A stretch of 64,000 nucleotides of DNA, from IMG/VR virus record IMGVR_UViG_3300027575_000002, positions 1 through 64,000 of that record, one strand, 5' to 3'. The notes beneath the pieces were generated by a model. That model searched no databases, was not told where the DNA came from, and was given only the letters and a program-made list of their open reading frames with translations. A program made the translations under genes and the position numbers. This DNA is from a virus. Positions 8,925 through 63,786 of the stretch are shown piece by piece; the stretch's first letter is position 1; the number at the start of each line of letters is the position of its first letter.

Positions 8925-9964
8925 GTCTTCTCTATGCCCCTGGGGTAACCTCCAAGTCGATCACGGTTCAGATCGTCAACGACAGCGGCATTGGCGTGAC
9001 TGGACTGGTCGCAGCGACGTGGCCAACGGTCTACTACCAAATTTTTGGCGCGAACGCAGAAGTAGCTATAACGCTCAGCGATTTGGCGACGATCACGACG
9101 CCGTGGACTTCGGGCGCCGTCTACGAATTAAGTGGGGGATACTACAGACTCGACTTGCCTAATGCGGCCGTGGCGTCGGCAGGCAAAGTAAAGGTTTTCG
9201 CAGAGACTACCGGCAAGCACTTGATTGCAGAGACGCTTGCACCGGACTATCCGCAGATGGATGCGAGGCAGTGGGTCGGTACGACGATTCCCGCACCAAC
9301 GCAGACAGGGGTGCCGATCACTGATCCGCACTACTTCGGTGGGGTGGTAGGTACGTTTGCTGTTGGTATTCCGAGTGTAAACGCGACCCAAGTCCAGAAT
9401 GACCTGGATAACTTGCAAACAGTACCAGGGTCCGGCGTGTTTACAGTCGAGGCGGGTGTCAACTTTCCTGGTGGTTCCGGTAGTGCGGCGGTGTGGGAGC
9501 AGCTCCTGTCGTCGTCTGGGTTCAGCACTCCTGGTAGTATCGGTGCCCTGCTCAAGGAGGACATAACCGGAGTCCTGGCACTCCAGTCCCAGCTGTCCGG
9601 CGGTACGTTCACCATCGTTTCGCCCGTCGCGCAGAACGGCACAATAACGATAGTCAGCGGGGATGACTACAGTGCGGCAGACGGTCGGCAGATCATATTC
9701 ACCGGCGCGTCACCGAACGTGTGGCCGAACTTGACCGGGGCGAACATCGTCCTCGAAGTATATTCGCTGACATCTGATAGCATGGTGGTGGAGTTCCCCG
9801 CGTCCCCGCAGACGCCGACCGGCACTCAGGTAGTGTGGTGCACTCCCGCCAGTGTGCAGACGGGCCAACTGAAGCACGGCACGAGGTGGCAATACTACCT
9901 AGTGGCGACGCTGGCCGATAATACCATCGCGACCCTGGCGATAGGGTACTTGACCGTGGGATAA
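8921..9964 (+). CDS. hypothetical fibre-like protein
   Basis: 347 aa, overlaps upstream stop; Thr/Gly/Val-rich. Confidence 0.55.
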   Translation: MSLLYAPGVTSKSITVQIVNDSGIGVTGLVAATWPTVYYQIFGANAEVAITLSDLATITTPWTSGAVYELSGGYYRLDLPNAAVASAGKVKVFAETTGKHLIAETLAPDYPQMDARQWVGTTIPAPTQTGVPITDPHYFGGVVGTFAVGIPSVNATQVQNDLDNLQTVPGSGVFTVEAGVNFPGGSGSAAVWEQLLSSSGFSTPGSIGALLKEDITGVLALQSQLSGGTFTIVSPVAQNGTITIVSGDDYSAADGRQIIFTGASPNVWPNLTGANIVLEVYSLTSDSMVVEFPASPQTPTGTQVVWCTPASVQTGQLKHGTRWQYYLVATLADNTIATLAIGYLTVG

Positions 9965-20481: not shown

Positions 20482-21741
20482 ATGCTGCAACTCGACTACA
20501 GGGCTATTGCCCGGCAGAAGCCGGAAGTCAAGAGGAGCGTCGCCCTCGACATCCTGGAGAACCTGGAGGAGTCGGCCTCCAACATGTTCCGGTTCGCCGG
20601 CACCTCGCAGGGCATGAACCTGCGCGCCGGTGCTCTCAGGCCGACCGACGCCTTCTCGATCCGCAACTGCTTCACCGCGTTCGTCAAGGAAGGGGAGGAA
20701 ATCCTCCGGCTGATCGACCCGCGCCGCAAGTCGGGCGGGTTCTCCATCAGGGACGTGTACGAGGCGGCGGGCGACACGATCAACAGCGGCGACTTTGCCA
20801 ACATCACCGGGCAGTTCATCTGGAACCGCTTCCTCGAAGGTTACAACTACCCGATGGCCCTGTGGCCGATGCTAACCCAAGAATATCAGACTAATTTCTT
20901 GAACGGCGAGCGCATCCCAGGCGTCGGCGAGTTCGGCACGGCGGGCATCGAGGTGGTCGGCGAGGGCGAGCGGTTCCCGACAATGGGCCTCAACGAGGAG
21001 TGGATCGACACCCCCCCCCTCCAAAAGCGCGGCTTTACATGCGAAATCACGAAAGAGATGACCATACAGGACCAAACGTCACTGGTGATGGAGCGGGCGG
21101 CGGGTGGGGGCAAGTGGATCAGCATCAACAAGGACATACGATGCCTCCAGCACGTCACGGGCGTCGTCAACACGTACTCGCGCAACGGCGTGTCGAGCAA
21201 CAACTACCAGACGGCAGGCAGTTACATCAACAAGACGGCCGTACCGCTGGTCAACTGGCAGAGCGTGCAGACGGTCGAGCTGCTGCTGGCCAACATCACC
21301 GACCCCAACACCGGGACGCCGGTGGTCCTGGAGGCGACGCAGTTCCTCGTACCCCTCGCGCTTAAGCGCACCAGCAACTTCCTTATGCAGGCTGGCAGCG
21401 TGGCGATGGTGGACAACACGCCGACGAACAACACCGTCCGATCCTACGGCGACAACCCGATGGCGCAGGGGTACTGGGGCCAGAAGCGGGCCGACGTGAT
21501 GTGCAACAGCTTCGTGGGCAACACGGCGGTAATCGGCGGCACCAAGAACAACACCACGAGCTGGTGGCTCGGCGACTTCAAGCGCGCGTACAAGTACAAG
21601 CAGGCGTGGGCGGCAGAGACGACGCAGATGGCTCCGAACTCGCTGGAGAGCTTCCACCGGGACGTGGTAACGGGATGGAAGTTCACGGAGATGGGCACGC
21701 CGATGACCGAGAACCCGCGCTACGCGGCGCAGGGAAATTGA
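20482..21741 (+). CDS. major capsid protein (HK97-fold candidate)
   Basis: 419 aa, correct position and size; GERIPGVGEFGTAGIEVVGEGERFP...CEITKEMTIQD resembles capsid E-loop/P-domain segments. Confidence 0.65.
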   Translation: MLQLDYRAIARQKPEVKRSVALDILENLEESASNMFRFAGTSQGMNLRAGALRPTDAFSIRNCFTAFVKEGEEILRLIDPRRKSGGFSIRDVYEAAGDTINSGDFANITGQFIWNRFLEGYNYPMALWPMLTQEYQTNFLNGERIPGVGEFGTAGIEVVGEGERFPTMGLNEEWIDTPPLQKRGFTCEITKEMTIQDQTSLVMERAAGGGKWISINKDIRCLQHVTGVVNTYSRNGVSSNNYQTAGSYINKTAVPLVNWQSVQTVELLLANITDPNTGTPVVLEATQFLVPLALKRTSNFLMQAGSVAMVDNTPTNNTVRSYGDNPMAQGYWGQKRADVMCNSFVGNTAVIGGTKNNTTSWWLGDFKRAYKYKQAWAAETTQMAPNSLESFHRDVVTGWKFTEMGTPMTENPRYAAQGN

Positions 21742-21779
21742 CCAACACGAAAACCAAGATCGCCCCTCGACTCTAGCAG

Positions 21780-22283
21780 GTGAAGACGATGGCAGACACC
21801 AAGCAGCCGACCGCAGACGAGAAGATCGCGGCGCTCGAGGCTCGCCTCGCGAAGCAGGCCGACCAGATCGACGCCCTCATGGTGCTGGTCAAGGCGCAGG
21901 CGGTCCAGCCGGACAGCGAGTGGACCCGCGAGCGCGTCAAGCAGGCGGCGCTGGAGGGCGTGCACGCGGCGATTGCAGCTTACATCGAGCTGCCGTACCA
22001 GGACCGCAGCCAGATCGAGGCGAACCGGTACGAGTTCGACGGCAAGCTGATCTTCTCCGTCCTGCTCGGCACGGGCAAGAAGGGTGAGTGGCCGAGGCTG
22101 GCCATACGCGCCGACCGGCCCGGCGACGCGAAGTCGCGGTACATGGAGGTGTGCGGCATCGGCAGCGTGACCGCAGACGCCAACCACCCGGAGTTTTCGC
22201 GGTGGACCGTCGCGGACGCGACCAAGGACAAGGCGGCGCAGGACGCGGTGAACCTGGAGTTCGAGTACGAGCAGGCGGCGTGA
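21780..22283 (+). CDS. hypothetical protein
   Basis: 167 aa; start uncertain (GTG 21780 or ATG 21789). Confidence 0.5.
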   Translation: MKTMADTKQPTADEKIAALEARLAKQADQIDALMVLVKAQAVQPDSEWTRERVKQAALEGVHAAIAAYIELPYQDRSQIEANRYEFDGKLIFSVLLGTGKKGEWPRLAIRADRPGDAKSRYMEVCGIGSVTADANHPEFSRWTVADATKDKAAQDAVNLEFEYEQAA

Positions 22284-43546: not shown

Positions 43547-45172
43547 CTATTTTGCCGCAGACTCTGCCGCCTGCCGCCTCACCTCCGCCATCCGCGCCGC
43601 CAGCTCGTCGGGCGAGGGGGGCGGCTCGCTGTCCACTCCGAGATTCTTGCCCCTGCCCGGCAGGTCGATCCCGCCGAAGTCCGCCACGTCGCCGAGCCTG
43701 ATACCACCGTCCGGCAGCTTGCTGGTCTCGCCCTTGGCGTTCGGCTCGCTCATATCGGTGTAGTGCAGCCACAGCCTGCCACCCTCGCGACGGTCGAGGT
43801 CGGTCAGTGCGTACCCCTCGACCCACGCCTCCCACGCCCCCTGGATCAGGCACAGTCGCTCCATCCACCGCCCACCGAGTCCTCGGTTGTCGCCCTGTGC
43901 GTCCGGCTCGGAGTCCACCAGCCTGCCCAGTGCCTCGCGCAGCGGTTTGAACGCGAGGTGGCGGGAGTCCTTGGCGTCGGTGATTCCGACCAGTGCCCAG
44001 AACTCCTTGGCCTTGTCCATGCGGGACCAGTCCAGCTTCTTTTCGCCTGGCGGGCACTCGGCGCGGTACGCGAATCCGTCGCTAGCCGAGCACCCCATCA
44101 GGTAGCACAGCGCCGCCGCTTGGCCACCGGTGATGCGGAGCTGGCTGATCCTCCGTGCAGGCTTCTTGTTCTCCTCGTACAAGTGCTCCACGCACTTGAT
44201 GAGCCGCCTGTGCCGGTCGAGGAACCCCACCGCCTCCGGCAGAGTCTTGTACCCCTGCGCCGCCGTGCGGTCCCACAGGAGGTCGAACGCGGCGGCGAGC
44301 ATCTTGGACATCTCCTTGCGCTCGTCCATCGGGCGCGACTCGACTACACCGTCCGACGCCCGCCTCCGTGTGCGAAAAGTCGGTGAGGTGTAGAACACGT
44401 CCGCCTCGCTGCGCGGCACGCAGTTGTCCGTGGTACTGCGGATGCGCTCGTTGGTGCTGAGGCCGGTGACGACGATGGTCTCGATGACCGGCCCGGTCAA
44501 GTTGCCGTCTGCGTCCTTGACGCAGGCCCAGAACGGGTACTTCGCCTTCGCAGGGTCCGCGCGGTCGGGGTCGTCCTCCCACATCTGGTGGGCATCGATC
44601 AGGGCCACCCCAGTGTGCTGACCCGACGTGACCTCGCCAGTGCGCTGCACGACGATGGTGCTGCCGTTGACCGTACCGTCGGTCATCCTGACCATCTCAC
44701 CCTTCGCGTATTCCTTTCCGCCGACCTTGAGCTTGGCGAGGCCGCAGGGCATCTCCACCTCTTCCGGGCACATCAGGACACCCGCCCACTGGCCATTGAG
44801 GATTATCTGCCGCAGGGACTTGAACCACCAGTCGCGCAGCTCGCGGTTGTCGGCGTTGGCTAGGCACCGCACCTTGTTGCCGCGCGAGTCGGTGAGCAGG
44901 TAGTCGTCGCCGTACCCCCACTGGTCCAACTTGGTGAGGGGTTGCTTCTCGACGCACTTGGCGCGGAACTCGTCCTCGGTCTGCCAGCCGAGCAGCGTCC
45001 TCGCGGTCTTCGCCGTCAGCGCGTCGGGCCACTGCCAGAGCTTGACCTTGACCTCCGGGTATCGCACGGCCTTGATGATCGGCTCGGCGTGTGGTTGCGG
45101 CGGTGCGGTCGCCTGACCGTTGGTGGCGGGTTGCTCCTTCTCCACCGGTGGCGGGGATACGAGTCGGGGCAT
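43547..45172 (-). CDS. ParB/Srx-like N-terminal domain protein
   Basis: NADNRELRDWW...NGQW...VNGSTIVVQRTGEVTSGQHTGVALIDA resembles the ParB-like nuclease/DGQHR-type domain; 541 aa; SD AGGAGA; starts MPRLVSP. Confidence 0.55.
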   Translation of the reverse strand: MPRLVSPPPVEKEQPATNGQATAPPQPHAEPIIKAVRYPEVKVKLWQWPDALTAKTARTLLGWQTEDEFRAKCVEKQPLTKLDQWGYGDDYLLTDSRGNKVRCLANADNRELRDWWFKSLRQIILNGQWAGVLMCPEEVEMPCGLAKLKVGGKEYAKGEMVRMTDGTVNGSTIVVQRTGEVTSGQHTGVALIDAHQMWEDDPDRADPAKAKYPFWACVKDADGNLTGPVIETIVVTGLSTNERIRSTTDNCVPRSEADVFYTSPTFRTRRRASDGVVESRPMDERKEMSKMLAAAFDLLWDRTAAQGYKTLPEAVGFLDRHRRLIKCVEHLYEENKKPARRISQLRITGGQAAALCYLMGCSASDGFAYRAECPPGEKKLDWSRMDKAKEFWALVGITDAKDSRHLAFKPLREALGRLVDSEPDAQGDNRGLGGRWMERLCLIQGAWEAWVEGYALTDLDRREGGRLWLHYTDMSEPNAKGETSKLPDGGIRLGDVADFGGIDLPGRGKNLGVDSEPPPSPDELAARMAEVRRQAAESAAK

Positions 45173-45203: not shown

Positions 45204-45440
45204 TTATTGGATGACTTCTGGTTCGTATTGGTCCTTGGCCTCGTACCGCAAGTCCTTCAGCGGTACTGGCACCTGCCCCTCGATTCCTCTTATCCTTCGC
45301 ACCTCGTCCACCGAGTACCCGCTGTGCAGGCCCGCCCAGCAGTCCTGGCACACGGCCAGCTCCTGCTGCGTGGACCCGTCGGGGCGCTTGATGACGTGGC
45401 GCTTCTTGGGTTGGTGTGCTTCGACCTTGTCGAAGCACAC
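45204..45440 (-). CDS. small protein ending in QYEPEVIQ
   Basis: 78 aa, GTG start with no clear SD; CQDCW; C-terminal motif shared with four other ORFs. Confidence 0.45.
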   Translation of the reverse strand: MCFDKVEAHQPKKRHVIKRPDGSTQQELAVCQDCWAGLHSGYSVDEVRRIRGIEGQVPVPLKDLRYEAKDQYEPEVIQ

Positions 45441-51482: not shown

Positions 51483-51682
51483 TACAATACTACAAGGGCG
51501 AGCAACCGTACCCAGTCGGCGACAGCAGGAACGACCGCAAGTTTACGTTCGCAGCACCGGAGGACCACCTGATTCCACCTGCACCGGTTTCGCTGACCGC
51601 AGAGCAGTGGGAGGACATCGACAGGGACCGAGCGGAACTAGAGGACTGGCTGGACCACCTTGGAAGGACATACGATGCCTAA
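51479..51682 (+). CDS. hypothetical protein
   Basis: 67 aa, ATGA coupling. Confidence 0.4.
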   Translation: MIQYYKGEQPYPVGDSRNDRKFTFAAPEDHLIPPAPVSLTAEQWEDIDRDRAELEDWLDHLGRTYDA

Positions 51683-52028
51683 GCTCTTGGCTCCATCCCC
51701 TGCACCGACCTCGGCGATCACCGCCGCGCTGACCAAGACCCTCGACGCCAGGGCTGGCATATACGCAGTGCGCAACCGGAGCAACGGCAAGGTGTTCGTC
51801 GTCGCGCACACCTACGACCAGCGCGACCACTGGTTGGACTTCCAGACGCTGCTCGACGCGGGTGGGTGCGTGCAGCACAAGCACATACAGGCGGCGTGGA
51901 AGAAGTATGGCAGGAATTACTTCGACTGCTGGCCGCTGATCGACTGCCCTATGGTACAGTTGGAGCAGAAGCGCGTCGAGTTCATCCGCGCTTTCGAGAG
52001 CGACGACCCGAAGAGGGGGTACAACTGA
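51675..52028 (+). CDS. GIY-YIG nuclease domain protein (domain only)
   Basis: GIYAVRNRSNGKVFVVAHTYDQRDHW...HKHIQAAWKKYG fits GIY...(Y/F)(I/V)G...R...H...N-type motifs; 117 aa, no extra DNA-binding domain. Confidence 0.6.
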   Translation: MPKLLAPSPAPTSAITAALTKTLDARAGIYAVRNRSNGKVFVVAHTYDQRDHWLDFQTLLDAGGCVQHKHIQAAWKKYGRNYFDCWPLIDCPMVQLEQKRVEFIRAFESDDPKRGYN

Positions 52029-53698: not shown

Positions 53699-54961
53699 AT
53701 GCCAGTCCAACAGCAGCAGTCGTCACTCGGTACGGTCCTGGGCCAGCGGCTCATGGACGCGCACAACATGAACAAGGACAAGCCGGTGGAGTTCGGGCAG
53801 ATGCGCCTGCCGACCGGCATCAAGCGCGGGGTGTTCCACCTCCAGACCATCAAGGTAGGCACGTACAAGGCCGACGTGCAGGAGACCGCGCTGCGCGGCC
53901 AAATGTACATGATGCTCGGCGGAGTCGCCGTGTCGCCGGAGCAGGAGGACGGCGAGAAGGTCGCCGGACTGTCGATGCAGAACATCATGATCCCGATGTG
54001 CGACACGCCGATCCACAACAACAAGCACACCACCAAGAAGAATTGGCCGCACGACGGGACCAAGTTCGAGGACCACTGGGGTGACTTCATCAACTTCATC
54101 CACTGGTTCGGCGTCCCGCCGTGCCAAGCCAAGACCTCGGCGGAGGTGGAGGCGTACTACATGGGTGCCGCCGCGATGCTGACGGACCCCAAGAACCCGA
54201 AGTACCAGGGTCCGCGCTACGTCAGCTTCGAGACCTACGACTTCACCCCACCTGCCGACCCCAAGAAGCCGGGTGAAAAGCCGCAGCCGATCACCCTTGA
54301 GAAGTGGCTGGGGCCGACGCAGTACACTCCGGGGACCGACCCCTCATTAAACGGCGTCGGCCACCCAAGCGATCCGCCCCCCGCTGCGGCGATGAACCCA
54401 TGCGAGCCGTTCACCGAGCCGCCGCAGGCGTCTCCGCCTCCCAGCAACCAGACCTTCGCCGAGGCGCCGACTGACCCCGCTGACGAAATCGCTGCCCTCG
54501 CTGCTCTAGCGCGGACGCAGGAGCAGAAGGCCACAGCGGAGAACCTGGCTGCGGGTGCGAAGCTCTTCGAGTACGCCAAGGCCAACGTCGGCGCGACGCA
54601 GGAGCAGTGCGAGGCCGCGACGTGGGAGCAGCTGGAATTGATGGCCCTCGGCGACAGCGGTGCGATCCCGGTCGTGACTGCCGCCGCACCACCACCAACT
54701 CAAGCAGCGCCTGCCGCTGCCCCTCCGCAGGTCAACGCCCCGGCAGTCGGCAGCAAGTGGAAGTTCGCCAAGCGCAAGCTGGACGGCACGCCACTCCTCC
54801 GCCCCGACAAGACTCCGTTCACACCGATCCCATGCGAGGTGGCGACGGTGGACACTGCGGCGAAGACCGTCACCCTCAAGGACGACAAGGGCCAGCCGGT
54901 GAAGGCGCCGGGCGGCAAGAGCGAGGCGGTGGTGAAGTGGGAGTGGCTCGAAGCGGCGTAA
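53699..54961 (+). CDS. hypothetical protein (position suggests ssDNA-binding role; unproven)
   Basis: 420 aa, globular N-terminal half, long Pro/Ala linker, small C-terminal domain. Confidence 0.5.
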   Translation: MPVQQQQSSLGTVLGQRLMDAHNMNKDKPVEFGQMRLPTGIKRGVFHLQTIKVGTYKADVQETALRGQMYMMLGGVAVSPEQEDGEKVAGLSMQNIMIPMCDTPIHNNKHTTKKNWPHDGTKFEDHWGDFINFIHWFGVPPCQAKTSAEVEAYYMGAAAMLTDPKNPKYQGPRYVSFETYDFTPPADPKKPGEKPQPITLEKWLGPTQYTPGTDPSLNGVGHPSDPPPAAAMNPCEPFTEPPQASPPPSNQTFAEAPTDPADEIAALAALARTQEQKATAENLAAGAKLFEYAKANVGATQEQCEAATWEQLELMALGDSGAIPVVTAAAPPPTQAAPAAAPPQVNAPAVGSKWKFAKRKLDGTPLLRPDKTPFTPIPCEVATVDTAAKTVTLKDDKGQPVKAPGGKSEAVVKWEWLEAA

Positions 54962-55757: not shown

Positions 55758-58013
55758 ATGCCACACCTACTAGCCTGCGACACAGAGTGTACCGGCGTCG
55801 ATCCTCGACATGGGTCGCGCCCGTACATCGTCACAACCTACGACCAAGACACCAAGCTTAACACATTCTGGCAATGGGACGTTGACCCAGTAACGCGTGT
55901 ACCACAAGTCCCGCAGGACGATAAAACGGCTATCCAAGCGCTGCTGAACTCAGCCGACCTCATCTACTTCCAAGTCTCGAAGTTTGATGGGCATATGCTA
56001 CGCACCATAGACGTAGAAATACCTTGGTCCAAGGTACGCGACACAATCATGTCGGGCCACCTCCTCGCAAGCAACCACCCGCACGGCCTGGAGAAGATGT
56101 GCGCTGAGTACCTTGGCTACGACATCGAGCACTTCGAGGCCGCAGTCCAAAAGGCGACGGTGTTGACCCGCAAGATTGTCAAGCGGGACTACCCGACCTG
56201 GCGACTGGCCAAGGAAGGGGACAGGTCCATGCCGTCTATCGACCAGTCCTCCAAGCGCGACGAGGACAAGGAGTGGAAGGCGGACATGTGGCTCCTGCGT
56301 GCTCTGATAAAGCAGACTGTGGCCGACTTGATAGGCGTACCTACCGAGGACTTCACCCTCGCGGACATTGAGGAGTCAGACCCGGACATCGTCCACGCCG
56401 CTTGCGATTACAAGGAGTACCCCTACGAGTGGCTGACGCTAACCAAGGACTACGGCAACGCTGATAGTGCGACTACGCTGCCCCTCGGCCTGCGTATGGA
56501 GCAATTGATACGTGAGCGCGGACTGTGGAAGATATACGAGGAGCGCATGAAGCTCCCGCAGATCGCGTTCGAGATGGAGGAGCGCGGTGTCACGGCGTCG
56601 GAGGTCAACACCCTCGGCGTAATCGAGCAGTACGGCATGGAGGCCGCGGAGGCGGAGGACCAGTGCGTCTCGATAGCCAAGAAGTATGGGCACGACCTGG
56701 AGCTACCCGCCGGTGCGACGGTCAACGACAGCCTGCGCGAGTTCTTCTACGGCAGTACGTGGCTGGAGTGCCCGCGCTGCGGCAAGGAGACCAAGGTCAA
56801 GGAGTGGAGCGACGTGCTCAAGGACGACAACCAGCTGTGCCCCAAGTGCGAGAAGAAGGGCAAGGGTCACGCCCTGGTCCACACCAAGGTCCACCGCAGG
56901 AGGAACCTGGGACTGGAGAAGGTCTATAGCGAGAAGACCGGCAACCCTACGCTCGACAAGGATGCGATGGCGTACTATCTGGCGACACTGGAGGGCGAGC
57001 CGTGGGACTTCGTGGACGCGCTGATGACCAAGCGCTCGCGCGCCGTGGCGGTCGGGTACGCGGAGTCCTACGTGTGGTTCTGGCTTCCGACCAAAGACCC
57101 GCTGTGGCGCAGGATGCACCCGACGTACAACCCGGTCGGCACGGACCACCTGCGGTGGAGCAGCTACAACTACAACATGCAGAACGTCTCCGACCAGGAG
57201 GACTCGCCGCTGCGCGGGTGCTTCGGCCCGGCACCAGGGCGGGAGTGGTGGTCGATGGACTTCAAGAACTTGGAGCTGCGCATACCCGCCTACGAGTCTG
57301 GCGAGCCTGCGATGATCGAGCTGTTCGAGAGGTCCAGCGATCCCCCATACTTCGGCAGCTACCACCTGCTGAACGCCAGCATCATCTACCCCGACGAGTT
57401 CTGGCCGCTGGCCGAGAGGGAGGGGGAGTTCAAGCACCAGCACAAGAACAAGTACAAGCGCATCAAGGGATTCGGCTTCGCGAAGCAGTACGGATGCGGG
57501 CGGCGCAAGGCCGACAAGGTGACGGGCGTCGCCGGGTCGTTCGACATGCTGGACGCCAAGCTGCCGCTGGTCGCCAAGCTCACCGACTACATTATCAACT
57601 TCGCGCGGAAGAACGGGTACGTGGAGACTATACCCGACAGGGATATCGACCCGGACAGGGGATATCCGATCCTGGCGTCGAGGGACGAGCGCGGCAACGT
57701 GGGCACGACCACGCCGTTCAACTACCACACCAGCGGTACGGCCATGCAGTGTACCAACAAGGCGATGGTCCAGTGCGAGGAGAAGGCCCTGCGACCGTGG
57801 AGGGCGGAAGGGTTCGACGCATTCATCACCGCGCAGGTGCATGACCAGCTGGTGTTCGACATGCCGGCCGGGGAGGGGATGAGCAACATACCGAGGGCGA
57901 CGAGGTTGAGGGAGCTAATGGAGGACAGCGGACGCGCGATTAGCATACCGACGCCGGTTTCGGTAGAGTTTATTCCGCATGGCAAGTCGTGGGCGGAAGG
58001 GGTAGCAGTATGA
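55758..58013 (+). CDS. family A DNA polymerase with 3'-5' exonuclease domain
   Basis: ExoI LACDTECTG; motif A MDFKNLELRIPA; motif B KRIKGFGFAKQYGCG; motif C QVHDQLVFD; CxxC...CxxC insertion at 56769-56849. Confidence 0.9.
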   Translation: MPHLLACDTECTGVDPRHGSRPYIVTTYDQDTKLNTFWQWDVDPVTRVPQVPQDDKTAIQALLNSADLIYFQVSKFDGHMLRTIDVEIPWSKVRDTIMSGHLLASNHPHGLEKMCAEYLGYDIEHFEAAVQKATVLTRKIVKRDYPTWRLAKEGDRSMPSIDQSSKRDEDKEWKADMWLLRALIKQTVADLIGVPTEDFTLADIEESDPDIVHAACDYKEYPYEWLTLTKDYGNADSATTLPLGLRMEQLIRERGLWKIYEERMKLPQIAFEMEERGVTASEVNTLGVIEQYGMEAAEAEDQCVSIAKKYGHDLELPAGATVNDSLREFFYGSTWLECPRCGKETKVKEWSDVLKDDNQLCPKCEKKGKGHALVHTKVHRRRNLGLEKVYSEKTGNPTLDKDAMAYYLATLEGEPWDFVDALMTKRSRAVAVGYAESYVWFWLPTKDPLWRRMHPTYNPVGTDHLRWSSYNYNMQNVSDQEDSPLRGCFGPAPGREWWSMDFKNLELRIPAYESGEPAMIELFERSSDPPYFGSYHLLNASIIYPDEFWPLAEREGEFKHQHKNKYKRIKGFGFAKQYGCGRRKADKVTGVAGSFDMLDAKLPLVAKLTDYIINFARKNGYVETIPDRDIDPDRGYPILASRDERGNVGTTTPFNYHTSGTAMQCTNKAMVQCEEKALRPWRAEGFDAFITAQVHDQLVFDMPAGEGMSNIPRATRLRELMEDSGRAISIPTPVSVEFIPHGKSWAEGVAV

Positions 58014-58495
58014 CGGCCGCACATCTACAGCACAAATTGCGAAGCAGCAAGGCATTCCGGCCAAGGATGTACAGACTACCCAAGCAATTGACGCTGACGC
58101 ACTTGCTAGATTGGCGCAACCTCGCGCTATTCATGGGATGGCCGTGGGTGGCTGATGGAGAGACTGAAGAATGGTCAAATACCGGATATGCAGGTGTACG
58201 GCACAGGGTGCAATTAACTAATGAGGAGGCGACAAAGAGACGGTGGAGTGACCTGTTGTGCCAACGGGTCAACGTCGGGCATCCGTGTGAACGCAAGCAG
58301 CAGACACGCGGTCAGTGGATGGCCGAGTGTCTGTCGCAAGGGCTGGGCATCAAGAAGGGGTCGATAGCAGCGCGAATAGAGGAAGCAAAGCGACTAAGAC
58401 CGGACTTATACGATCCGAATTGGCAGGCTACTCCAGAGAAGGCAGAAGTGCCTGCCGCATTCGTTGACGATTACGAACCAACGGTCATTCAGTAA
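58010..58495 (+). CDS. hypothetical protein ending in DDYEPTVIQ
   Basis: ATGA coupling to the polymerase stop; 161 aa. Confidence 0.5.
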   Translation: MTAAHLQHKLRSSKAFRPRMYRLPKQLTLTHLLDWRNLALFMGWPWVADGETEEWSNTGYAGVRHRVQLTNEEATKRRWSDLLCQRVNVGHPCERKQQTRGQWMAECLSQGLGIKKGSIAARIEEAKRLRPDLYDPNWQATPEKAEVPAAFVDDYEPTVIQ

Positions 58496-58560
58496 GCAAG
58501 CCAGGCGGCGGGAATGCCCATTGCTATTGCCACGATTGCGTGGCTCGCGTCCTGACGGCT

Positions 58561-58598
58561 AAAACGAGGAAACCCCCGCCAATTTGGATCGGCAGGGG
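58561..58598 (-). terminator. intrinsic terminator for leftward islet
   Basis: On the minus strand, CCCCTGCC/GGCGGGGG stem (one G-U pair), 10-nt loop, then TTTCCTCGTTTT. Confidence 0.5.
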
Positions 58599-58625
58599 TC
58601 TCGCGGGGAAAATTGGACGGTCGCA

Positions 58626-59084
58626 CTACGCGGTGGCGGTCGCCTGTTCCGCCGGCTGTTCGGTGGCGGGCGGGGTCGCGGCGGTCGTCTGCGCGGCCTT
58701 CGCCTTGGCCTTCTTCTCCGCCTTCTTCGCGGTTGCGGCCTCCTTCTCCTCGGCCCGCTTCATGTCCTCCTCGACCCTCTGGTCGTCGGTCATTGGGGTG
58801 GCCAGGATGAAGAGTTGATTGTCGGGCAGCTTGTCGCACGACTTGCCGTTGGCGTCGAACGCGAACTTGGAGGTCTTGACGGTCTTGTAGCGGATTCGCG
58901 CGGCGGTCTTGGCCTTAACCTTCATGTCGTCGCGCGTGATGGGGTCGTGGAAGTCCTCGCCCTGCGTGATGATCCACGGTTGGCCGTTCAGGATGGTGTC
59001 CCAGTCGTACTTGCACCCGGTCCCTCCGGTCGCGGCCTTGAACTCGAACGTCTTCCCCTTGTTGATTTTTACGGCTTGAGGCAT
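58626..59084 (-). CDS. hypothetical protein with Lys/Ala-rich histone-H1-like tail
   Basis: 152 aa from internal Met (MPQAVKINKG...); C-terminal KRAEEKEAATAKKAEKKAKAKAAQ. Confidence 0.5.
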   Translation of the reverse strand: MPQAVKINKGKTFEFKAATGGTGCKYDWDTILNGQPWIITQGEDFHDPITRDDMKVKAKTAARIRYKTVKTSKFAFDANGKSCDKLPDNQLFILATPMTDDQRVEEDMKRAEEKEAATAKKAEKKAKAKAAQTTAATPPATEQPAEQATATA

Positions 59085-59143
59085 GGTAGACTGACCTTTC
59101 GGATTGTGGTCTGGTGGGCCTCCCGACGCGGGAGGTATACCCA

Positions 59144-59362
59144 TCAGTCCGGTTGTTTGGCGGATCGCATGCTGTTGAGTACGAGGTCGGAGGCCAGACA
59201 AACGTCGCGGTTGGTGCCACCGTCCCATCGGACTTCGACCAGGTAGGGGTCGAGGGACACGACGGACAGGACCACACCGAGGCGACCGGTTCCCTTCTGC
59301 CGGACACGCTGGCGATCACCTATGCGTCGAGATGGAGAGGGGAAAGATTGCACGGCGTTCAT
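59144..59362 (-). CDS. hypothetical protein
   Basis: 72 aa; strong SD GGAGG. Confidence 0.5.
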   Translation of the reverse strand: MNAVQSFPSPSRRIGDRQRVRQKGTGRLGVVLSVVSLDPYLVEVRWDGGTNRDVCLASDLVLNSMRSAKQPD

Positions 59363-59384
59363 GGTCTGATCCTCCTATTCGCAT

Positions 59385-59402
59385 GAATGACGCACGTCAT
59401 TC
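59385..59402. promoter_or_regulatory. 18-bp palindrome GAATGACG-CA-CGTCATTC
   Basis: Perfect 8-bp arms, 23 nt upstream of the start of the minus-strand gene 59144..59362. Confidence 0.4.
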
Positions 59403-59558
59403 GTACATAGGTATCATAGCACCATACCGAACGAATGCAATAGCAGTATGACGAGAAAACGAAAATAGCTGGTAGGCAGGCAACATAAACCTATCGACGC
59501 GGTAGGATAGAACGGTAGCAACTAGCAACACACTACGTACTTACGGCGAGGTGCGGAC

Positions 59559-59739
59559 ATGCCGAAATTGATAGCACCGATACCAAAAAATACCGAAAAT
59601 AATTCGGAAATTCAACCATACTGGACGAGTAACATCCCCGGATTCAGCCGAGATGGTAAATCGAACCCTTGAGGCGATTGAGATAGTCAAAAACTACAGG
59701 TACGACCAAGCAGACTACGAACCGGAGGTAATACAATAA
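59559..59739 (+). pseudogene. decayed mini-gene carrying both terminal motifs in two frames
   Basis: ATG 59559 opens MPKLIAPIPKN... (stop 59670-59672). A second frame, open from 59575, ends ...NYRYDQADYEPEVIQ-stop (59737-59739), overlapping the primase ATG. Confidence 0.3.
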
Positions 59740-62048
59740 TGCCAAAGTTGATAGCACCCGCGCTGACTTCAACTGCTAACGAAATTGACCACCTTCGTGC
59801 GTTCGAGCACCACAAGATCGAACTGACGGACAGAGGCAGCGAGGCCGTGGGTACGTGCCCGTTTTGCTTGAAGGACGGAAAATTGTACGTCAGTACGGAC
59901 ACTGGCCAGTGGCAATGCAAGGTGTGCGGCAAGTCGGGCAACCCGCTAACGCTCCTGCGCGAACTGTGGGCAGTGAGCGATGCCGCTACCAATGGGGCGA
60001 GCAGGACACTGGCCGAGGAGCGCGGGCTGCTGGACCCGCTGACGGTGACGGCGTGGGGGGTGTGCCAGTCGGTAGTAGACGGCTGCTGGATGGTTCCGGG
60101 GTACGATACCAAGGGGAACCTGACGCAGCTCTACAGGCGCGTGAGGATGCTCAAGGGTAGCGAGTGGGTCAACGTGCTTCTGCCGACGCCGGGCGTGTGG
60201 CCAGACGGTAAGACGCACGCGCTGCACATGGCGAGCGGCACGTACGACCCGGCCAGACCACGCGTAGACATCATGGAGGGGCCGTGGGATGCTATGGCGT
60301 TCTACGAGGTCGCGCTGAGCAGCAAGTGGGGTACAGACGGTAAACTGGAGCCGACTGGGAGCATGTCGTCGTCCATCTTGCACGACACCAACGTGGTGGC
60401 CGTACCTGGATGCAACACGTTCCGCGACGAGTGGGTGGAGATGTGCAGAGGGAAGGACGTTACAATATGGTTCGACAGTGACCACCCGATAGTGGACTCC
60501 GCGACCAACGAGCCGCGCCGACCGTGGGTGAGGCCAGGGTTCGACGCCACATTCCGCAACGCGAAGAAGCTGTCGGGCATCGCCAAGTCGGTGAGGTGGC
60601 TGCGCTGGGGAAAAGAAGGATTCGACCCTGAAAAGAAGAACGGATATGACGTTCGAGACCACCTGCGGTCCAACGCCAACCGCAGGGTCGCGCTTGAGGA
60701 GTTGTACGCCAAGGTCGAGCCGGCACCAGCCGACTGGTTCTCGGCGGCGACCAACTACCACGTCGGCAACGGGACTACGCACGCAGGAGCCGCGCCGATA
60801 GAGCCGATCCACTGCGACAACTGGCAGGACTGCATATCGTCGTGGCGCGACCCGGTGAGGGGCGAGGCGGCGCTGGAGTGGCGGCAGGACATAGAGGACG
60901 CGCTGGCCGTGATGCTGGCGGTGTGCGCGAGTACCAAGCAGGCGGGCGGGAACCAGTTGGTATTCCAGTTGGTGGCACCGCCGTCCAGCGCCAAGACCAC
61001 GCTGTGCAAGGGCCTGCTGGTGTCGAGGACGTGCCACAGCCTGGAGAACCTGACCGGGTTCTTCAGCGGGTACAAGATACCCGGAGAGAAGGACAAGGAC
61101 TGCTCGCTGATAGCCAGGATCAACGGCAAGACGCTGGTGACGTGCGAGGCGGACGTGATGGTCAACAACCCGATGTGGCCGGAGCTGATGGCGGAGTATC
61201 GGCGAATCCACGACGGTGCGGGTGGCAAGACGTTCAAGAACATGGATACCGACTTGCTGCACGAGGGGCTGCGCACGCCCTGGATACTGGCGGGCACGGA
61301 GAAACTGCTGGACGTGGACATGAGCCAGGTAGGGGACCGATTCCTGCGGGTGAAGATCAACACGCCGACAGAGAAGGTAAAGCGCGACATCATGCGGCGG
61401 TCGTTCCGCAACGAGCTGTCGGCGATGGCGTCCACGAGCAACGGCACGGCGGCAAGCATCAACAACAAGTTGCAGGCTAGAGCGCAGGCGATCACCGGCG
61501 GGTACGTGGACTGGCTGCGCGACAACGTGGAGGCGAAACTGGCGACCACGGTGATGCCGGAGCGGAGCGAGGACATGTGCCTGGACCTCGGTGAACTGAT
61601 AGCAGACATGCGAGCCAGACCGAATACAGACAAGCGCAAGGTCGAGACGCACGACACCAAGGAGCTACCGGCCCGCATATCCGCGCAGCTCGGTAGGCTG
61701 GCGATGTGCGCTGCGGTAGCATTGAATAAGCAGGAGGTCAGCACCGACATACTCCGCTTGGTCCGCAAGGTGACCATCGACAGCGCTGACGGACACAGTC
61801 TCAACGTGGCGAAGTGGCTGTGCAGGACTACGGACAGCGGCAAGTCCCACCAGGAGATGATGGGCGTCACGCCGGAGCAGGTCAAGCTGTGGTCGGGCAT
61901 GGCGAACGACAGGGTGGAGGCGTACCTCGCGTTCATGTGCAAGATCGGGATAGTGCGGCGAGAGGGTCCGTCGCGCAGCGGCGGGTGGTGGAAGCTGACG
62001 GACAGGTCGGCGGACTTGTGCAACAGACTGGAGATAAAGTATGCCTAA
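59739..62048 (+). CDS. DNA primase (Zn-ribbon plus TOPRIM) fused to P-loop NTPase (primase-helicase)
   Basis: CPFCLKDGKLYVSTDTGQWQCKVCGKSG; TOPRIM-like DIMEGPWDAMAF and IWFDSDHP; P-loop-like APPSSAKTT. Confidence 0.75.
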   Translation: MPKLIAPALTSTANEIDHLRAFEHHKIELTDRGSEAVGTCPFCLKDGKLYVSTDTGQWQCKVCGKSGNPLTLLRELWAVSDAATNGASRTLAEERGLLDPLTVTAWGVCQSVVDGCWMVPGYDTKGNLTQLYRRVRMLKGSEWVNVLLPTPGVWPDGKTHALHMASGTYDPARPRVDIMEGPWDAMAFYEVALSSKWGTDGKLEPTGSMSSSILHDTNVVAVPGCNTFRDEWVEMCRGKDVTIWFDSDHPIVDSATNEPRRPWVRPGFDATFRNAKKLSGIAKSVRWLRWGKEGFDPEKKNGYDVRDHLRSNANRRVALEELYAKVEPAPADWFSAATNYHVGNGTTHAGAAPIEPIHCDNWQDCISSWRDPVRGEAALEWRQDIEDALAVMLAVCASTKQAGGNQLVFQLVAPPSSAKTTLCKGLLVSRTCHSLENLTGFFSGYKIPGEKDKDCSLIARINGKTLVTCEADVMVNNPMWPELMAEYRRIHDGAGGKTFKNMDTDLLHEGLRTPWILAGTEKLLDVDMSQVGDRFLRVKINTPTEKVKRDIMRRSFRNELSAMASTSNGTAASINNKLQARAQAITGGYVDWLRDNVEAKLATTVMPERSEDMCLDLGELIADMRARPNTDKRKVETHDTKELPARISAQLGRLAMCAAVALNKQEVSTDILRLVRKVTIDSADGHSLNVAKWLCRTTDSGKSHQEMMGVTPEQVKLWSGMANDRVEAYLAFMCKIGIVRREGPSRSGGWWKLTDRSADLCNRLEIKYA

Positions 62049-63786
62049 GTTAGTTCAACCCGTGGTGACCACAGAGCAACCACAAACGAGTGAAACAATC
62101 ACTAAGCAATTAAGCCTTGCGGAGTTGATATCGCTGCATGAGCAGCTGAGGTGCGACCCACCGCCAGCAGACAAAAAGTCGCTGTCGGACAGGTTCCTCG
62201 TGCCGCCGTTCAGCGTGCTGGACGCGAGGCAGGGATACTGGCAGACACGCAAGCGCATGTGGATTGCATTGGGGATACAAAGTGAAATCGGCAGGGGCGA
62301 TACGCCGTCTACGTCCGCACGAGTTGGACCGGGCGACGCTCCCACCTATAGTCCTATAGGTTGGAGCGTCGCCAACAATGGCCTGCTCGGATTCTCCGAG
62401 CAGGCCAGGAACCACTACCGCGAGGCAAACGCCACGCCTGGAGGGAGCACGCTTCCAGCGTGCTCCCTTAAGAACGGCAAGACGCAGAGGGGGGATGGCC
62501 GTGGCAGACCACTTGCCAGAACCTTCGGTTCTGGCAACCCTGGTGATTTGGCTGAGGGGTTCAATATCAACAGTGGAAAAACAAATAGGTTGGCTCTCGG
62601 CGGGACGGGAGCCAACTCATGCTGGTTAGGCACAGCAGGGCCAGTAGGTGACCACGGTATCAACAAGAAGGCAGAAAATGCTGATGCTTCACTATATGGT
62701 GCATACGGCAAAGACGATGATGTGAGCCGCCGCAATGCGGCGGCTCAACCCCAGTCTGGTACGTCGATATTCGATCCTGTCGTGTGCGAGCTGGCGTACC
62801 GCTGGTTTTGCCCGCAGTTGGGTAGTGTGCTTGACCCCTTCGCGGGTGGATCAGTGCGCGGAATAGTGGCGGCGAAACTGGGCAGGAAGTACACAGGCAT
62901 GGACCTGAGCGCGAGGCAACTCGCTGCCAACGAGGCGCAGGCCGAGGCGATAGTGTCGAACAACAGACCGAGGTGGGTCGCCGGGGATTCGACGACGGTG
63001 TGTGAGGCAGTGCCAGGCGAGTACGACTTCGTGTTCAGCTGCCCCCCATACTTCGACCTCGAACTCTACAGCCACCACGAGGCCGACCTGTCGAACATGA
63101 CCTACGAGCAGTTCCTGGTGAAGTACCGCGAGATTGTCACCAACAGCTGCTCGATGCTCAAGGACGACAGGTTCGCGTGCTTCGTGGTGGGTGACCTGCG
63201 CGACGAGCGCGGCATGTACCGCAGGTTCGTGAGCGACACGATCCAGGCGTTCGTGGATGCAGGGCTGGAGTTGTACAACCGCGCCGTACTCGTCACCAGC
63301 GTTGGGTCACTGCCGATCAGGGTAGGCAGGCAGTTCAACAAATATCGCAAGTTGGGAACCACGCACCAGAACGTACTGGTGTTCGTCAAGGGTGACCCAG
63401 GCAAAGCGAGCGCAACGTGCGGCAGCGTGGACATGTCGGACTTGGAGTATCCGCAGCAGGGGGAATTGGCCATAGTCACCAATGACTTGACCGACGACGA
63501 TGTGCAAGTATTGGACGGTCGCGCGAGCGAAGACGGCGACATGATAGTGTTAGACTGCTCCACCGAGGAGGCAACCGTAGCCTGTGACGTGATCCGGTTT
63601 CAGGCATGGAAGGAGGGCAGAAATGCCCCACGCATATACATGCTAGGCAAGTCTGGATGGTCGCAGGTAGAGAGCGGCCAGATGTGCTACACGTCTAATG
63701 ACCGCGTGTACCTGCACCGCGAACACTTCCCAAACGCGCAGCTACCCGCTGTGGTGAACGACTACGAGCCGGAGGTGATACAATAG
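62041..63786 (+). CDS. DNA methyltransferase (N6-A/N4-C class)
   Basis: FLVPPFSVLDARQGYWQTRKRMW, motif I VLDPFAGGSVRG, motif IV FVFSCPPYFDLE; ends NDYEPEVIQ. Confidence 0.8.
   Translation: MPKLVQPVVTTEQPQTSETITKQLSLAELISLHEQLRCDPPPADKKSLSDRFLVPPFSVLDARQGYWQTRKRMWIALGIQSEIGRGDTPSTSARVGPGDAPTYSPIGWSVANNGLLGFSEQARNHYREANATPGGSTLPACSLKNGKTQRGDGRGRPLARTFGSGNPGDLAEGFNINSGKTNRLALGGTGANSCWLGTAGPVGDHGINKKAENADASLYGAYGKDDDVSRRNAAAQPQSGTSIFDPVVCELAYRWFCPQLGSVLDPFAGGSVRGIVAAKLGRKYTGMDLSARQLAANEAQAEAIVSNNRPRWVAGDSTTVCEAVPGEYDFVFSCPPYFDLELYSHHEADLSNMTYEQFLVKYREIVTNSCSMLKDDRFACFVVGDLRDERGMYRRFVSDTIQAFVDAGLELYNRAVLVTSVGSLPIRVGRQFNKYRKLGTTHQNVLVFVKGDPGKASATCGSVDMSDLEYPQQGELAIVTNDLTDDDVQVLDGRASEDGDMIVLDCSTEEATVACDVIRFQAWKEGRNAPRIYMLGKSGWSQVESGQMCYTSNDRVYLHREHFPNAQLPAVVNDYEPEVIQ

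Follow-up and report, generated by a model that had tools for sequence, protein, structure and literature searches.

In phage T7, the single-stranded DNA-binding protein (SSB) gp2.5 and the primase-helicase gp4 bind T7 DNA polymerase at basic patches through acidic C-terminal tails, in which the terminal Phe is essential. The C-terminal tip of bacterial SSB, DDDIPF, serves as a hub address. Clamp-binding peptides comprise the gp45-binding C-termini of the T4 proteins gp43, gp33 and gp55, the bacterial motif QL[SD]LF, and the eukaryotic PIP boxes present on, for example, DNMT1 and SPRTN. At the DNA level, boundary or 'linker' sequences of lambdoid phages have been proposed to be recombination sites for module exchange. 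In phage HK620, the SSB tip NDYPPF is needed to recruit Sak4 (PMC5928155).

Here we analyze a terminal peptide for which we found no description in the literature. It was found in a stretch of 64,000 nucleotides (positions 1 to 64,000 of the virus record IMGVR_UViG_3300027575_000002; hereafter, the window), which is a rotation of the ENA contig ERZ27256005:k141_1062489 (67,737 bp); 3.6 kb of this contig, which was found again in several assemblies, lie outside the window. A preliminary description of the window had reported five ORFs with a common C-terminal peptide, and this was confirmed: all five copies of the (D/Q)YEP(E/T)VIQ tail (14-mer form, e.g. LPAVVNDYEPEVIQ) are in frame and immediately followed by a stop codon (990–1013, 58469–58492, 59713–59736 and 63760–63783 on the plus strand, and 45207–45230 on the minus strand). 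A sixth copy lies in the 3.6 kb outside the window, at the C-terminus (...APVFDYEPEVIQ*) of a minus-strand ORF of 162 aa encoding a small 'CGRYR' protein. All six copies are read in one common frame and are exactly terminal.

Dinucleotide-preserving shuffles gave an expectation of zero chance matches to the motif. The five tails scored 41–49 in a six-frame BLOSUM scan, as against 27 for the next best match; no extra copy was seen inside a gene or in another frame. Among frames running from stop to stop over 50 codons or more (718 frames, 257,000 pairs), all pairs with at least seven of eight identical terminal residues belonged to the tail family. Chance or an artefact as the origin of the tail is ruled out by the shuffles, the scan and the pairwise comparison of termini. 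The search outside this phage that had been proposed, performed with the exact peptide back-translated, gave one match in IMG/VR and six in GTDB species genomes; a stop codon follows in none of these seven, as opposed to all six copies in this phage, and the single IMG/VR match is internal, in a scaffold-like protein.

The bearers are all encoded in the early/replication region, on both strands. Methyltransferase 1 (family N6_N4_Mtase) ends in DDYEPEVIQ (987–1016 with the stop codon, plus strand); it is truncated by the window start, the full protein having 475 aa with the 5' part of its gene outside the window, and the GGAGG within its tail serves the next gene, which is GTGA-coupled and encodes a 196-aa protein (1013–1603). 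Methyltransferase 2 (62041–63786, plus strand, 581 aa) ends in NDYEPEVIQ (63757–63786 with the stop codon), a tail that is predicted to be disordered and includes a GGAGG upstream of the PLP-enzyme gene. The 78-aa zinc-ribbon ORF (45204–45440, minus strand) carries DQYEPEVIQ (45204–45233 with the stop codon) in divergent codons (CAATACGAACCAGAAGTCATCCAA). Codons are also divergent in the tail DDYEPTVIQ (58466–58495 with the stop codon) of the 161-aa ORF (ORF3, 58010–58495, plus strand); this bearer is translationally coupled to the polymerase gene (ATGA) and needs no downstream ribosome-binding site because the next gene is convergent. The remaining copy in the window lies within a 180-bp 'head...tail' remnant (59559–59739, plus strand). 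In it, a 37-codon ORF that starts with MPKLIAP duplicates the primase 5' end in diverged form, and overlaps with a 27-codon frame that ends in ADYEPEVIQ and whose stop codon overlaps the primase ATG (TAATG). The latter frame had been listed as an ORF of 28 codons; the source record does not annotate it, and it looks like a remnant and is probably not a real gene.

The bearers had been described as unrelated, which holds outside the tail for all of them except the two methyltransferases, which have a common SAM-binding domain (blastp E = 1e-6). No homologs of the 161-aa ORF were found in a search of 5.8 billion proteins or in an IMG/VR scan seeded with the ORF; its sole relative is a weakly similar protein of L003, an IMG/VR contig retrieved via its polymerase, and this protein ends in a different tail, LPMRPP, that genome's own. 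The 78-aa zinc-ribbon ORF has a homolog in L003 (E = 5e-9) without the tail, and an 85-aa homolog of the 162-aa bearer in the relative L084 has neither linker nor tail. Judging from these three bearers, the tail is an add-on to proteins whose homologs lack it or carry another one.

The two codon-divergent copies allow peptide and DNA constraint to be separated. The tail of the 161-aa ORF differs from that of methyltransferase 2 at 8 of 24 bases with one amino-acid-changing codon (0 of 100,000 simulations), and the tail of the 78-aa ORF differs at 7 of 24 bases, again with one such codon (P = 6e-5); GGAGG is lost in both. That these copies differ almost solely at synonymous sites (P <= 6e-5) bears out the peptide-level constraint proposed earlier and indicates that selection on the tail acts at the peptide level, not on DNA alone. 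The other copies, of which three had been counted as nearly identical in DNA, number four once the sixth is included; they retain a functional GGAGG and are too alike for the two kinds of constraint to be told apart.

A Pro/Ala-rich linker precedes every tail copy. In the AlphaFold2 model of methyltransferase 2, pLDDT is below 50 at residues 573–581 and 1–10, the domain at 475–560 is confident, and no intramolecular docking of either terminus is predicted. According to this model the tail is a disordered extension at the very end of the protein, set off by a flexible linker. It corresponds to the generic description of a SLiM, being short, disordered, terminal, evolutionarily plastic and portable among unrelated proteins.

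A genome-specific C-terminal tail is also common to DNA-acting enzymes in five relatives, of which four are syntenic and one is distant. Its bearers there are the two methyltransferases, which are joined in single genomes by a Mom-like protein, a PLP-enzyme/acetyltransferase fusion or a SprT-like protein. The general form of these tails is P-x(2-3)-[VLI]-x(1-2)-COOH; in most cases the tail is basic, of the type PPx(R/K)(R/K)(L/M)R. Three syntenic relatives again have a methyltransferase pair with matching tails whose sequence differs per genome: methyltransferases 1 and 2 end, respectively, in PPPVKKVL and APPVRRVT in L084, in PPTPERVF and TPTPEAVW in L086, and in AIPVRLR and PQPERLR in L087, where the SprT-like protein is also tailed. 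In L084 and L086 the co-resident tails match as peptides and use different codons. In L088, RRLR-type tails are found on methyltransferase 2, the PLP-enzyme fusion and the Mom-like protein, the latter two without a coupled downstream gene; the short methyltransferase 1 homolog of this genome is an exception (PPPAPEW), so that matching within genomes is imperfect. The observed matching score was reached by 4 of 120 permutations, a modest result; the tests for this and for the N-terminal peptide described below are based on five to six genomes. Such matching is as expected from a shared partner or matched tails. Homologs of methyltransferase 2 number several thousand. In about 35 homologs of this enzyme, PPxx(R/K)(L/M)R is retained as the tail at this position, and the comparison indicates that in this phage both methyltransferases changed together from a basic to an acidic tail; between the two types the charge is reversed and only the P...[VI] spacing is kept.

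The more distant relatives L004, L006, L008 and L025 (PolA about 40% identical) lack this tail, and L025 has no shared termini whatever. A megablast search of GenBank phages yielded no close cultured relative; the best protein matches, in the Erythrobacter phages ZS04 and R6L, comprise the methyltransferase core only and are not syntenic. When the last 119 residues of methyltransferase 2 were used in an exhaustive search, six weak matches were obtained, none with the tail aligned.

A second shared peptide, at the N-terminus (MPKLIAP; MPKLIAPALTST), is common to the primase and the methyltransferases. This head was found in the primase (59739–62048; head MPKLIAP at 59739–59759), in methyltransferase 2 (MPKLVQP, 62041–62061), in a 117-aa ORF resembling a homing endonuclease (MPKLLAP, 51675–51695, in codons unlike those of the primase head), all on the plus strand, and in a 541-aa ORF on the minus strand (43547–45172; MPRLVSP at 45152–45172) that begins 31 nt downstream of the tailed 78-aa ORF. 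HTH regulators are also among the bearers of the head. In six genomes the primase and methyltransferase 1 have a genome-specific head in common (3 of 720 permutations, again a modest result). The head may be a second docking peptide. Charge complementarity between head and tail was considered and dropped, the pattern being inconsistent across five genomes.

Whether the tail serves as a short linear motif for docking on one common partner, which may be the T7-like replisome, we regard as roughly an even call. The Pro/Ala-rich linker and (D)DYEP(E/T)VIQ-COOH would then form a common address for otherwise unrelated early proteins, namely both methyltransferases, the polymerase-coupled 161-aa protein, the zinc-ribbon protein and the 'CGRYR' protein; the putative partner, most likely part of the T7-like replication machinery, would bring DNA modification near newly made DNA. 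The preliminary description had suggested a docking tail by analogy to T7, and this analogy is reasonable since the replication module is T7-like, with a family A polymerase (PolA), a primase and a gp2.5-like/DUF669-fold SSB. The docking part of the suggestion agrees with the peptide-level constraint, the predicted disorder, the presence on both methyltransferases and the T7-like module, whereas binding to the replisome and the anti-restriction role suggested with it are hypothetical.

As in T7 gp2.5 and gp4, a short acidic disordered C-terminal peptide is found on unrelated proteins in a phage with a family A polymerase module, and the acidic run is present (D, D/N, E and E within the last nine residues, with no basic residue). 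Unlike the T7 tails, all six copies end in Gln and have Tyr at -7 as the sole aromatic residue, the bearers are methyltransferases and small accessory proteins instead of core replisome proteins, and relatives use a basic tail. The SSB-like protein and the primase of this phage, counterparts of the tailed T7 proteins, end in ...WEWLEAA and ...NRLEIKYA. The SSB tip, too, follows a disordered linker, ends the protein and has an acidic-aromatic-Pro-hydrophobic composition, and NDYEP... of methyltransferase 2 resembles NDYPPF of the HK620 SSB; however, the peptide described here is on enzymes and not on SSB, its end is not aromatic, and the direction of recruitment would be reversed. A tip resembling D-D-D-I-P-F on an OB-fold SSB was not found; DIPF or DLPY ends only some homologs of the SSB-like protein in other phages. 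With clamp-binding peptides the tail has in common that one short peptide is present on otherwise unrelated proteins, and the bearers of eukaryotic PIP boxes include a DNA methyltransferase and a SprT-family protease, the same classes that are tailed in these phages. Neither tail nor head matches the clamp/PCNA consensus sequences (QL[SD]LF, QLxLxL, Qxx[LIM]xx[FY][FY]), no clamp gene was found among the ORFs scanned, and T7-like polymerases are not known to use clamps.

A candidate for the hub, to be taken as a lead only, is the 420-aa SSB-like protein (53699–54961, plus strand), whose gene comes directly after that for the Sak4-like AAA_24 protein. An SSB domain of gp2.5-like/DUF669 fold forms its N-terminal part and a Tudor/SH3-like barrel (residues 350–420) its C-terminal part, and its linkers are disordered and rich in Pro and Ala; the Tudor-like call is based on Foldseek matches with E about 0.1. 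The charge of this putative receptor domain possibly covaries with the tail type, but L086 contradicts this. Pfam and PHROG scans of the early ORFs revealed no peptide-binding module, clamp or protease.

ClpX recognizes both N- and C-terminal signal classes, and in Caulobacter the Lon-dependent turnover of CcrM involves its C-terminus. The tail, perhaps together with the head, could be a degron, recognized by an AAA+ protease or adaptor of host or phage and timing the removal of early enzymes, the methyltransferases among them. We consider this unlikely, even though the tail is terminal, disordered and portable among unrelated early proteins, signals are present at both termini, and a genome-specific sequence could follow the host protease. 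The ...EVIQ end is unlike the known degrons (ssrA LAA, MuA RRKKAI), and in a comparison that also included ClpX N-motifs only the head MPKLIAP showed a loose resemblance, to the N-terminal signal 'Met-basic-hydrophobic x3'. No ClpP, Lon or adaptor gene was seen among the early-region ORFs scanned, and a switch from a basic to an acidic tail with the methyltransferases still matched is hard to explain by turnover. Since the bearers in relatives are specifically DNA-acting enzymes, targeting fits better.

The origin of the acidic tail bears on a different reading, in which a 3' gene junction made up of ribosome-binding site, spacer and stop/start is portable and was spread by the phage annealing recombinase for module exchange and the peptide is a by-product. 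In relatives, the Shine-Dalgarno sequence of the following gene coincides with the charged core of the tail (CGGAGGGTA, AAGAAGGTG, CCCGAGGCA). The L088 junction, which encodes RRLRR-stop, reads CGACTACG-GAGGTGATAC-ATGCCGATA and aligns with CGACTACG[AGCCG]GAGGTGATAC[AATAGAGTC]ATGCCAATA in this phage, where it is read in another frame. The acidic tail thus probably arose by indels/frameshift across the ribosome-binding site of the next gene: frame-changing indels across this site and its spacer would have turned the ancestral basic tail into an acidic one, which would then have been copied to other genes by gene conversion. Such an origin and the near identity of four copies, each with GGAGG 7–14 nt upstream of the next start codon, indicate that DNA-level processes (gene conversion, junction duplication) contributed to the spread. 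Short repeated DNA exactly at gene ends and starts, with intragenomic copying and a duplicated junction remnant (here, the primase start and tail at 59559–59739), resembles the lambdoid boundary sequences, and genes for a Sak4-like annealase and a PDDEXK exonuclease are present in the phage. The lambdoid sequences, however, are identical at the DNA level with no peptide constraint, whereas the two diverged copies, having lost GGAGG, keep the peptide through 7–8 mostly synonymous changes. The ribosome-binding site is unneeded at the 161-aa ORF and two L088 tails lack a coupled gene; all six copies share their frame and terminal position, and the 14-mer is not reused as a ribosome-binding site elsewhere. 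Together with the peptide match despite different codons in L084 and L086, this makes a by-product slightly less probable still than a degron.

The peptide might also act during its own synthesis, the last approximately eight residues slowing termination from within the exit tunnel and tuning downstream re-initiation. Pro-rich basic composition, which the canonical tails have, can slow peptidyl transfer or termination; the conserved part is exactly the last 8–10 codons, and stop/start overlaps (GTGA, TAATG, ATGA) follow most copies. This effect seems improbable, given that the copy in the 161-aa ORF and those of the L088 PLP-enzyme fusion and Mom-like protein have no coupled downstream gene, that the acidic and basic versions have no stalling-type sequence in common, and that the restriction to DNA-acting enzymes and the matching within genomes would be left unexplained. 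The P1 protein DarB contains a methyltransferase and is packaged in the phage. A tag loading enzymes into the capsid for co-injection with DNA is nevertheless very improbable here, because the likeness to encapsulin cargo-loading peptides and the T4 capsid-targeting sequence (a portable terminal peptide, a flexible linker, unrelated cargo) includes no sequence similarity, no structural protein carries or matches the motif and no other link to capsid proteins was found, the bearers are early replication/modification proteins encoded on both strands of one region, and a head on the primase and HTH regulators fits poorly.

Returning to docking, an argument against this reading is that a receptor already in existence would be an unlikely target for a peptide born by frameshift. 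An extended version, which we put forward tentatively and hold to be rather doubtful, is a genome-specific system of address labels in which tail and head co-evolve with a phage hub (the Tudor/SH3-like domain of the SSB or the polymerase) and bring the primase as well as modifying enzymes (methyltransferases, Mom-like protein, PLP enzyme, SprT-like protein) to DNA under replication. The label of this phage would have arisen anew by a frameshift through a ribosome-binding site, and gene conversion would have carried it to new clients as well as to both methyltransferases.

Should the tail act as a degron or in translation instead, unrelated genes would still have a compact regulatory element in common. 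If the docking address is true, it would be a rare, datable motif, born from a ribosome-binding site read in a new frame, that then swept the genome, as well as a 9-residue tag that could be used for pull-downs, deleted and transplanted. The head in common with the primase would then suggest that a peptide code of wider extent, so far unrecognized, exists among early proteins in this group. These phages would tether modification enzymes to a common hub by a swappable peptide; with the replication machinery as the most plausible hub, nascent DNA would be modified before it is exposed to host nucleases, and the address-label system, if true, would correspond in viruses to the network of PCNA and PIP boxes.

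All five ORFs that the preliminary description had ending in the peptide (D)DYEP(E/T)VIQ were recovered: every copy of (D/Q)YEP(E/T)VIQ in the window lies in the frame of an ORF and abuts a stop codon. These copies close methyltransferase 1 (990-1013), a 78-aa zinc-ribbon ORF (45207-45230, minus strand), the polymerase-coupled 161-aa ORF (58469-58492), a short frame before the primase (59713-59736) and methyltransferase 2 (63760-63783). They score 41-49 in a six-frame scan of the window, whereas the runner-up match scores 27; the scan found no additional copy in any frame, and shuffled sequence gave no match. Among 718 stop-to-stop frames compared, all pairs with at least seven of eight identical terminal residues belong to the tail family. 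Searches with the back-translated peptide gave one match in IMG/VR and six in 596 Gb of GTDB genomes, in no case at a C-terminus.

An ENA metagenome contig of 67,737 bp (L002) includes the window in rotated form, and the 3.6 kb that the window lacks contain a sixth copy, at the end of a 162-aa minus-strand ORF (...APVFDYEPEVIQ-stop). The contig is circular or terminally redundant, the window being a 64-kb piece with ends at 1 and 64000; the missing segment (L002 11960-15557) holds the genes for a PLP enzyme and a 214-aa protein as well as five small minus-strand genes, among them those of the sixth bearer and an HTH-like protein. Methyltransferase 1 had been described in a form truncated by the window, its real length being 475 aa, and the 28-codon frame taken for an ORF is absent from the called genes. 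The bearers are indeed unrelated outside the tail, except for the two methyltransferases, which have a common SAM-binding domain. Methyltransferase 1 also contains an internal degenerate copy, SPEVVL (CCGGAGGTGGTACT, 960-973), nine codons before the terminal EPEVIQ, and its homologue in the syntenic relative L084 shows the same doubling (PDRVL...PVKKVL).

A Pro/Ala-rich stretch precedes every copy (...LRPAV-, ...QLPAVV-, ...EVPAAFV-, ...LLTAPVF-). Comparison with homologues shows the tail to be an add-on: an 85-aa homologue of the 162-aa bearer, from a relative, has neither linker nor tail, a tail-less homologue of the 78-aa bearer exists, and a homologue of the 161-aa ORF ends in a different tail. 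The AlphaFold2 model of methyltransferase 2, which draws on 40 homologues, gives pLDDT values below 50 to the first ten and the last nine residues; the extra domain just before the tail (475-560) is confidently modelled, and no intramolecular docking is predicted. This domain also matches six repeated stretches of a 2,891-aa metagenomic protein, P0134. A disordered terminal peptide could be read as a degron, which we consider unlikely.

The tail DNA is nearly identical in four copies, not three as first described, with one to three differences, all synonymous; these copies do carry a GGAGG, placed 7-14 nt before the next start codon. The peptide could thus be the by-product of a junction or ribosome-binding-site cassette maintained at the DNA level, but the remaining two copies make this rather improbable. 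Both have lost the GGAGG, and their tails differ from that of methyltransferase 2 at 8 of 24 bases (161-aa ORF, 58010-58495) and 7 of 24 (78-aa ORF, 45204-45440, minus strand), with only one amino-acid-changing codon each, an outcome that random substitution reproduced in 0 and 6 of 100,000 trials, respectively. Since the gene 3' of the 161-aa ORF is convergent, a downstream ribosome-binding site is unnecessary there. The constraint therefore acts on the peptide, as had been proposed, and the Shine-Dalgarno role is a second constraint overlapping the tail in some copies. That the nascent peptide acts on termination and re-initiation is quite improbable: the 161-aa ORF precedes a convergent gene and two tails of the relative L088 have no coupled downstream gene.

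Four syntenic contigs (L084, L086, L087 and L088) were reached via methyltransferase 2 homologues. They have in common with this phage the gene order PDDEXK exonuclease, AAA_24/Sak4, ~400-aa protein, PolA, a conserved minus-strand gene, primase, methyltransferase 2, PLP enzyme, minus-strand HTH genes and methyltransferase 1. About 35 methyltransferase 2 homologues retain a tail in the corresponding place, following ...FPDA..P, with the consensus PPxx(R/K)(L/M)R(GT)-stop. In each relative the tail is common to different proteins, and co-resident copies differ in codons: methyltransferases 2 and 1 end in APPVRRVT and PPPVKKVL in L084 and in TPTPEAVW and PPTPERVF in L086; in L087 they end in PQPERLR and AIPVRLR, and a SprT-like protein in APTRLR; in L088 the endings are PARRRLRR (methyltransferase 2), PPIRRLRD (a PLP-enzyme/acetyltransferase fusion) and PSVRRLRG (a Mom-like protein). 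In the more distant L003, three proteins have LPMRPP close to their ends. The best match of a methyltransferase tail is its co-resident partner in four of five genomes, L088 with its short methyltransferase 1 homologue being the exception; the observed score was reached in only 4 of 120 permutations. The tail studied here is thus this phage's own acidic form of a tail that DNA-acting enzymes of these phages carry in a genome-specific sequence, and in this genome it has spread further, to three small early proteins. All versions have in common only a Pro followed, 3-5 residues on, by a Val/Leu/Ile, itself 2-3 residues from the C-terminus. That such peptides serve as a packaging tag is very improbable. 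An intein (Pfam Intein_splicing) lies in the AAA_24/Sak4 gene of L088, whose portal gene has a faint LAGLIDADG signal (101-1942 and 21677-21842).

The acidic version may have arisen at the junction of the methyltransferase 2 and PLP-enzyme genes, which is alignable between L088 and this phage. The L088 junction, CGACTACG-GAGGTGATAC-ATGCCGATA, reads R L R R stop, followed by a ribosome-binding site and start codon; that of this phage, CGACTACG[AGCCG]GAGGTGATAC[AATAGAGTC]ATGCCAATA, is translated in a different frame and gives D Y E P E V I Q stop. From this two-sequence alignment, the acidic tail looks like a new-frame reading, after indels, of the ancestral basic tail together with its ribosome-binding site and spacer. 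Methyltransferase 1 has almost the same tail DNA as methyltransferase 2, and its relatives end in PVKKVL or PVRLR, which implies that gene conversion would have kept the two tails matched.

An N-terminal head, MP(K/R)L(I/L/V)xP, opens the primase, both methyltransferases, a 117-aa homing-endonuclease-like ORF, a 541-aa ORF downstream of the 78-aa bearer and an orphan 37-codon ORF (59739-59759, 62041-62061, 51675-51695, 45152-45172 on the minus strand and 59559-59579 in the window; L002 15145-15165). Pro/Thr/Ser-rich linkers come after it, and the copies differ mostly synonymously, most clearly among those of the primase, methyltransferase 1, the orphan and the 117-aa ORF. In six genomes the primase and methyltransferase 1 have a common, genome-specific head (MPKLIAP here; MPKI(I/L)E, MPVS.., MPxIE, MPKIE and MP(V/I)S in the others), with a score that only 3 of 720 permutations reach. 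By tying a core replisome protein to a methyltransferase, the head lends indirect support to a role at the replisome. About half of the early-region genes begin with Met-Pro. The orphan lies in a 180-bp remnant upstream of the primase (59559-59739) and duplicates the primase 5' end; an overlapping 27-codon frame ends in the tail, and the source record calls no gene there. The remnant resembles what a gene junction would leave behind after duplication or decay. In L003 the head-encoding motif ATGCCNNNNATHGAR occurs 8 times versus 0.04 expected; one copy (9726-9740), intergenic and interrupted by an in-frame stop (ATGCCGTAGATCGAG), looks decayed.

A candidate tail partner, as a lead only, is the 420-aa protein (53699-54961) encoded after the Sak4-like AAA_24 gene. 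The best viral fold matches of its N-terminal domain are DUF669/gp2.5-like and annotated ssDNA-binding proteins; long disordered Pro/Ala-rich linkers and a C-terminal Tudor/SH3-like barrel are also present, the PDB matches of the latter being Tudor domains (target-normalised TM-score ~0.7, probability 1.0, E ~0.1). Some of its homologues from other phages terminate in DIPF or DLPY, resembling SSB tips, whereas this protein ends in WLEAA. The C-terminal tip of the cognate SSB, NDYPPF in the case of phage HK620, is known to recruit Sak4 proteins (PMC5928155). Several acidic residues of the consensus have been lost from the barrel loops of this phage, but no covariation with the tail can be claimed because L086, with non-basic tails, retains consensus loops. 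Among the replication neighbours, the family A DNA polymerase (55758-58013) has a Cys-rich zinc-ribbon insertion (residues 334-366; weak Pfam match, Cys_rich_KTR), present too in the polymerases of L084, L086 and L004, a distant relative with ~40% identical PolA. A 196-aa ORF (1013-1603), GTGA-coupled to methyltransferase 1 and conserved in L084, has no Pfam match; it contains YCPDVSAGTNYFESK, resembling a PD-(D/E)xK nuclease motif, and may encode a nuclease partner of methyltransferase 1.

The common terminal tail is thus confirmed and extended. The docking logic itself is already known from T7 tails, the SSB tip, clamp-binding peptides and PIP boxes; the motif, its protein carriers, its per-genome co-variation and the apparent ribosome-binding-site origin were not found described in the literature searched. 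The best explanation is a docking tail, a proposal that draws on the peptide-level constraint, the disordered add-on character and the matched methyltransferase tails, and we regard its chances as about even. Such a short linear tail would bring DNA-modifying and accessory proteins to one common putative partner, plausibly within the T7-like replication machinery.
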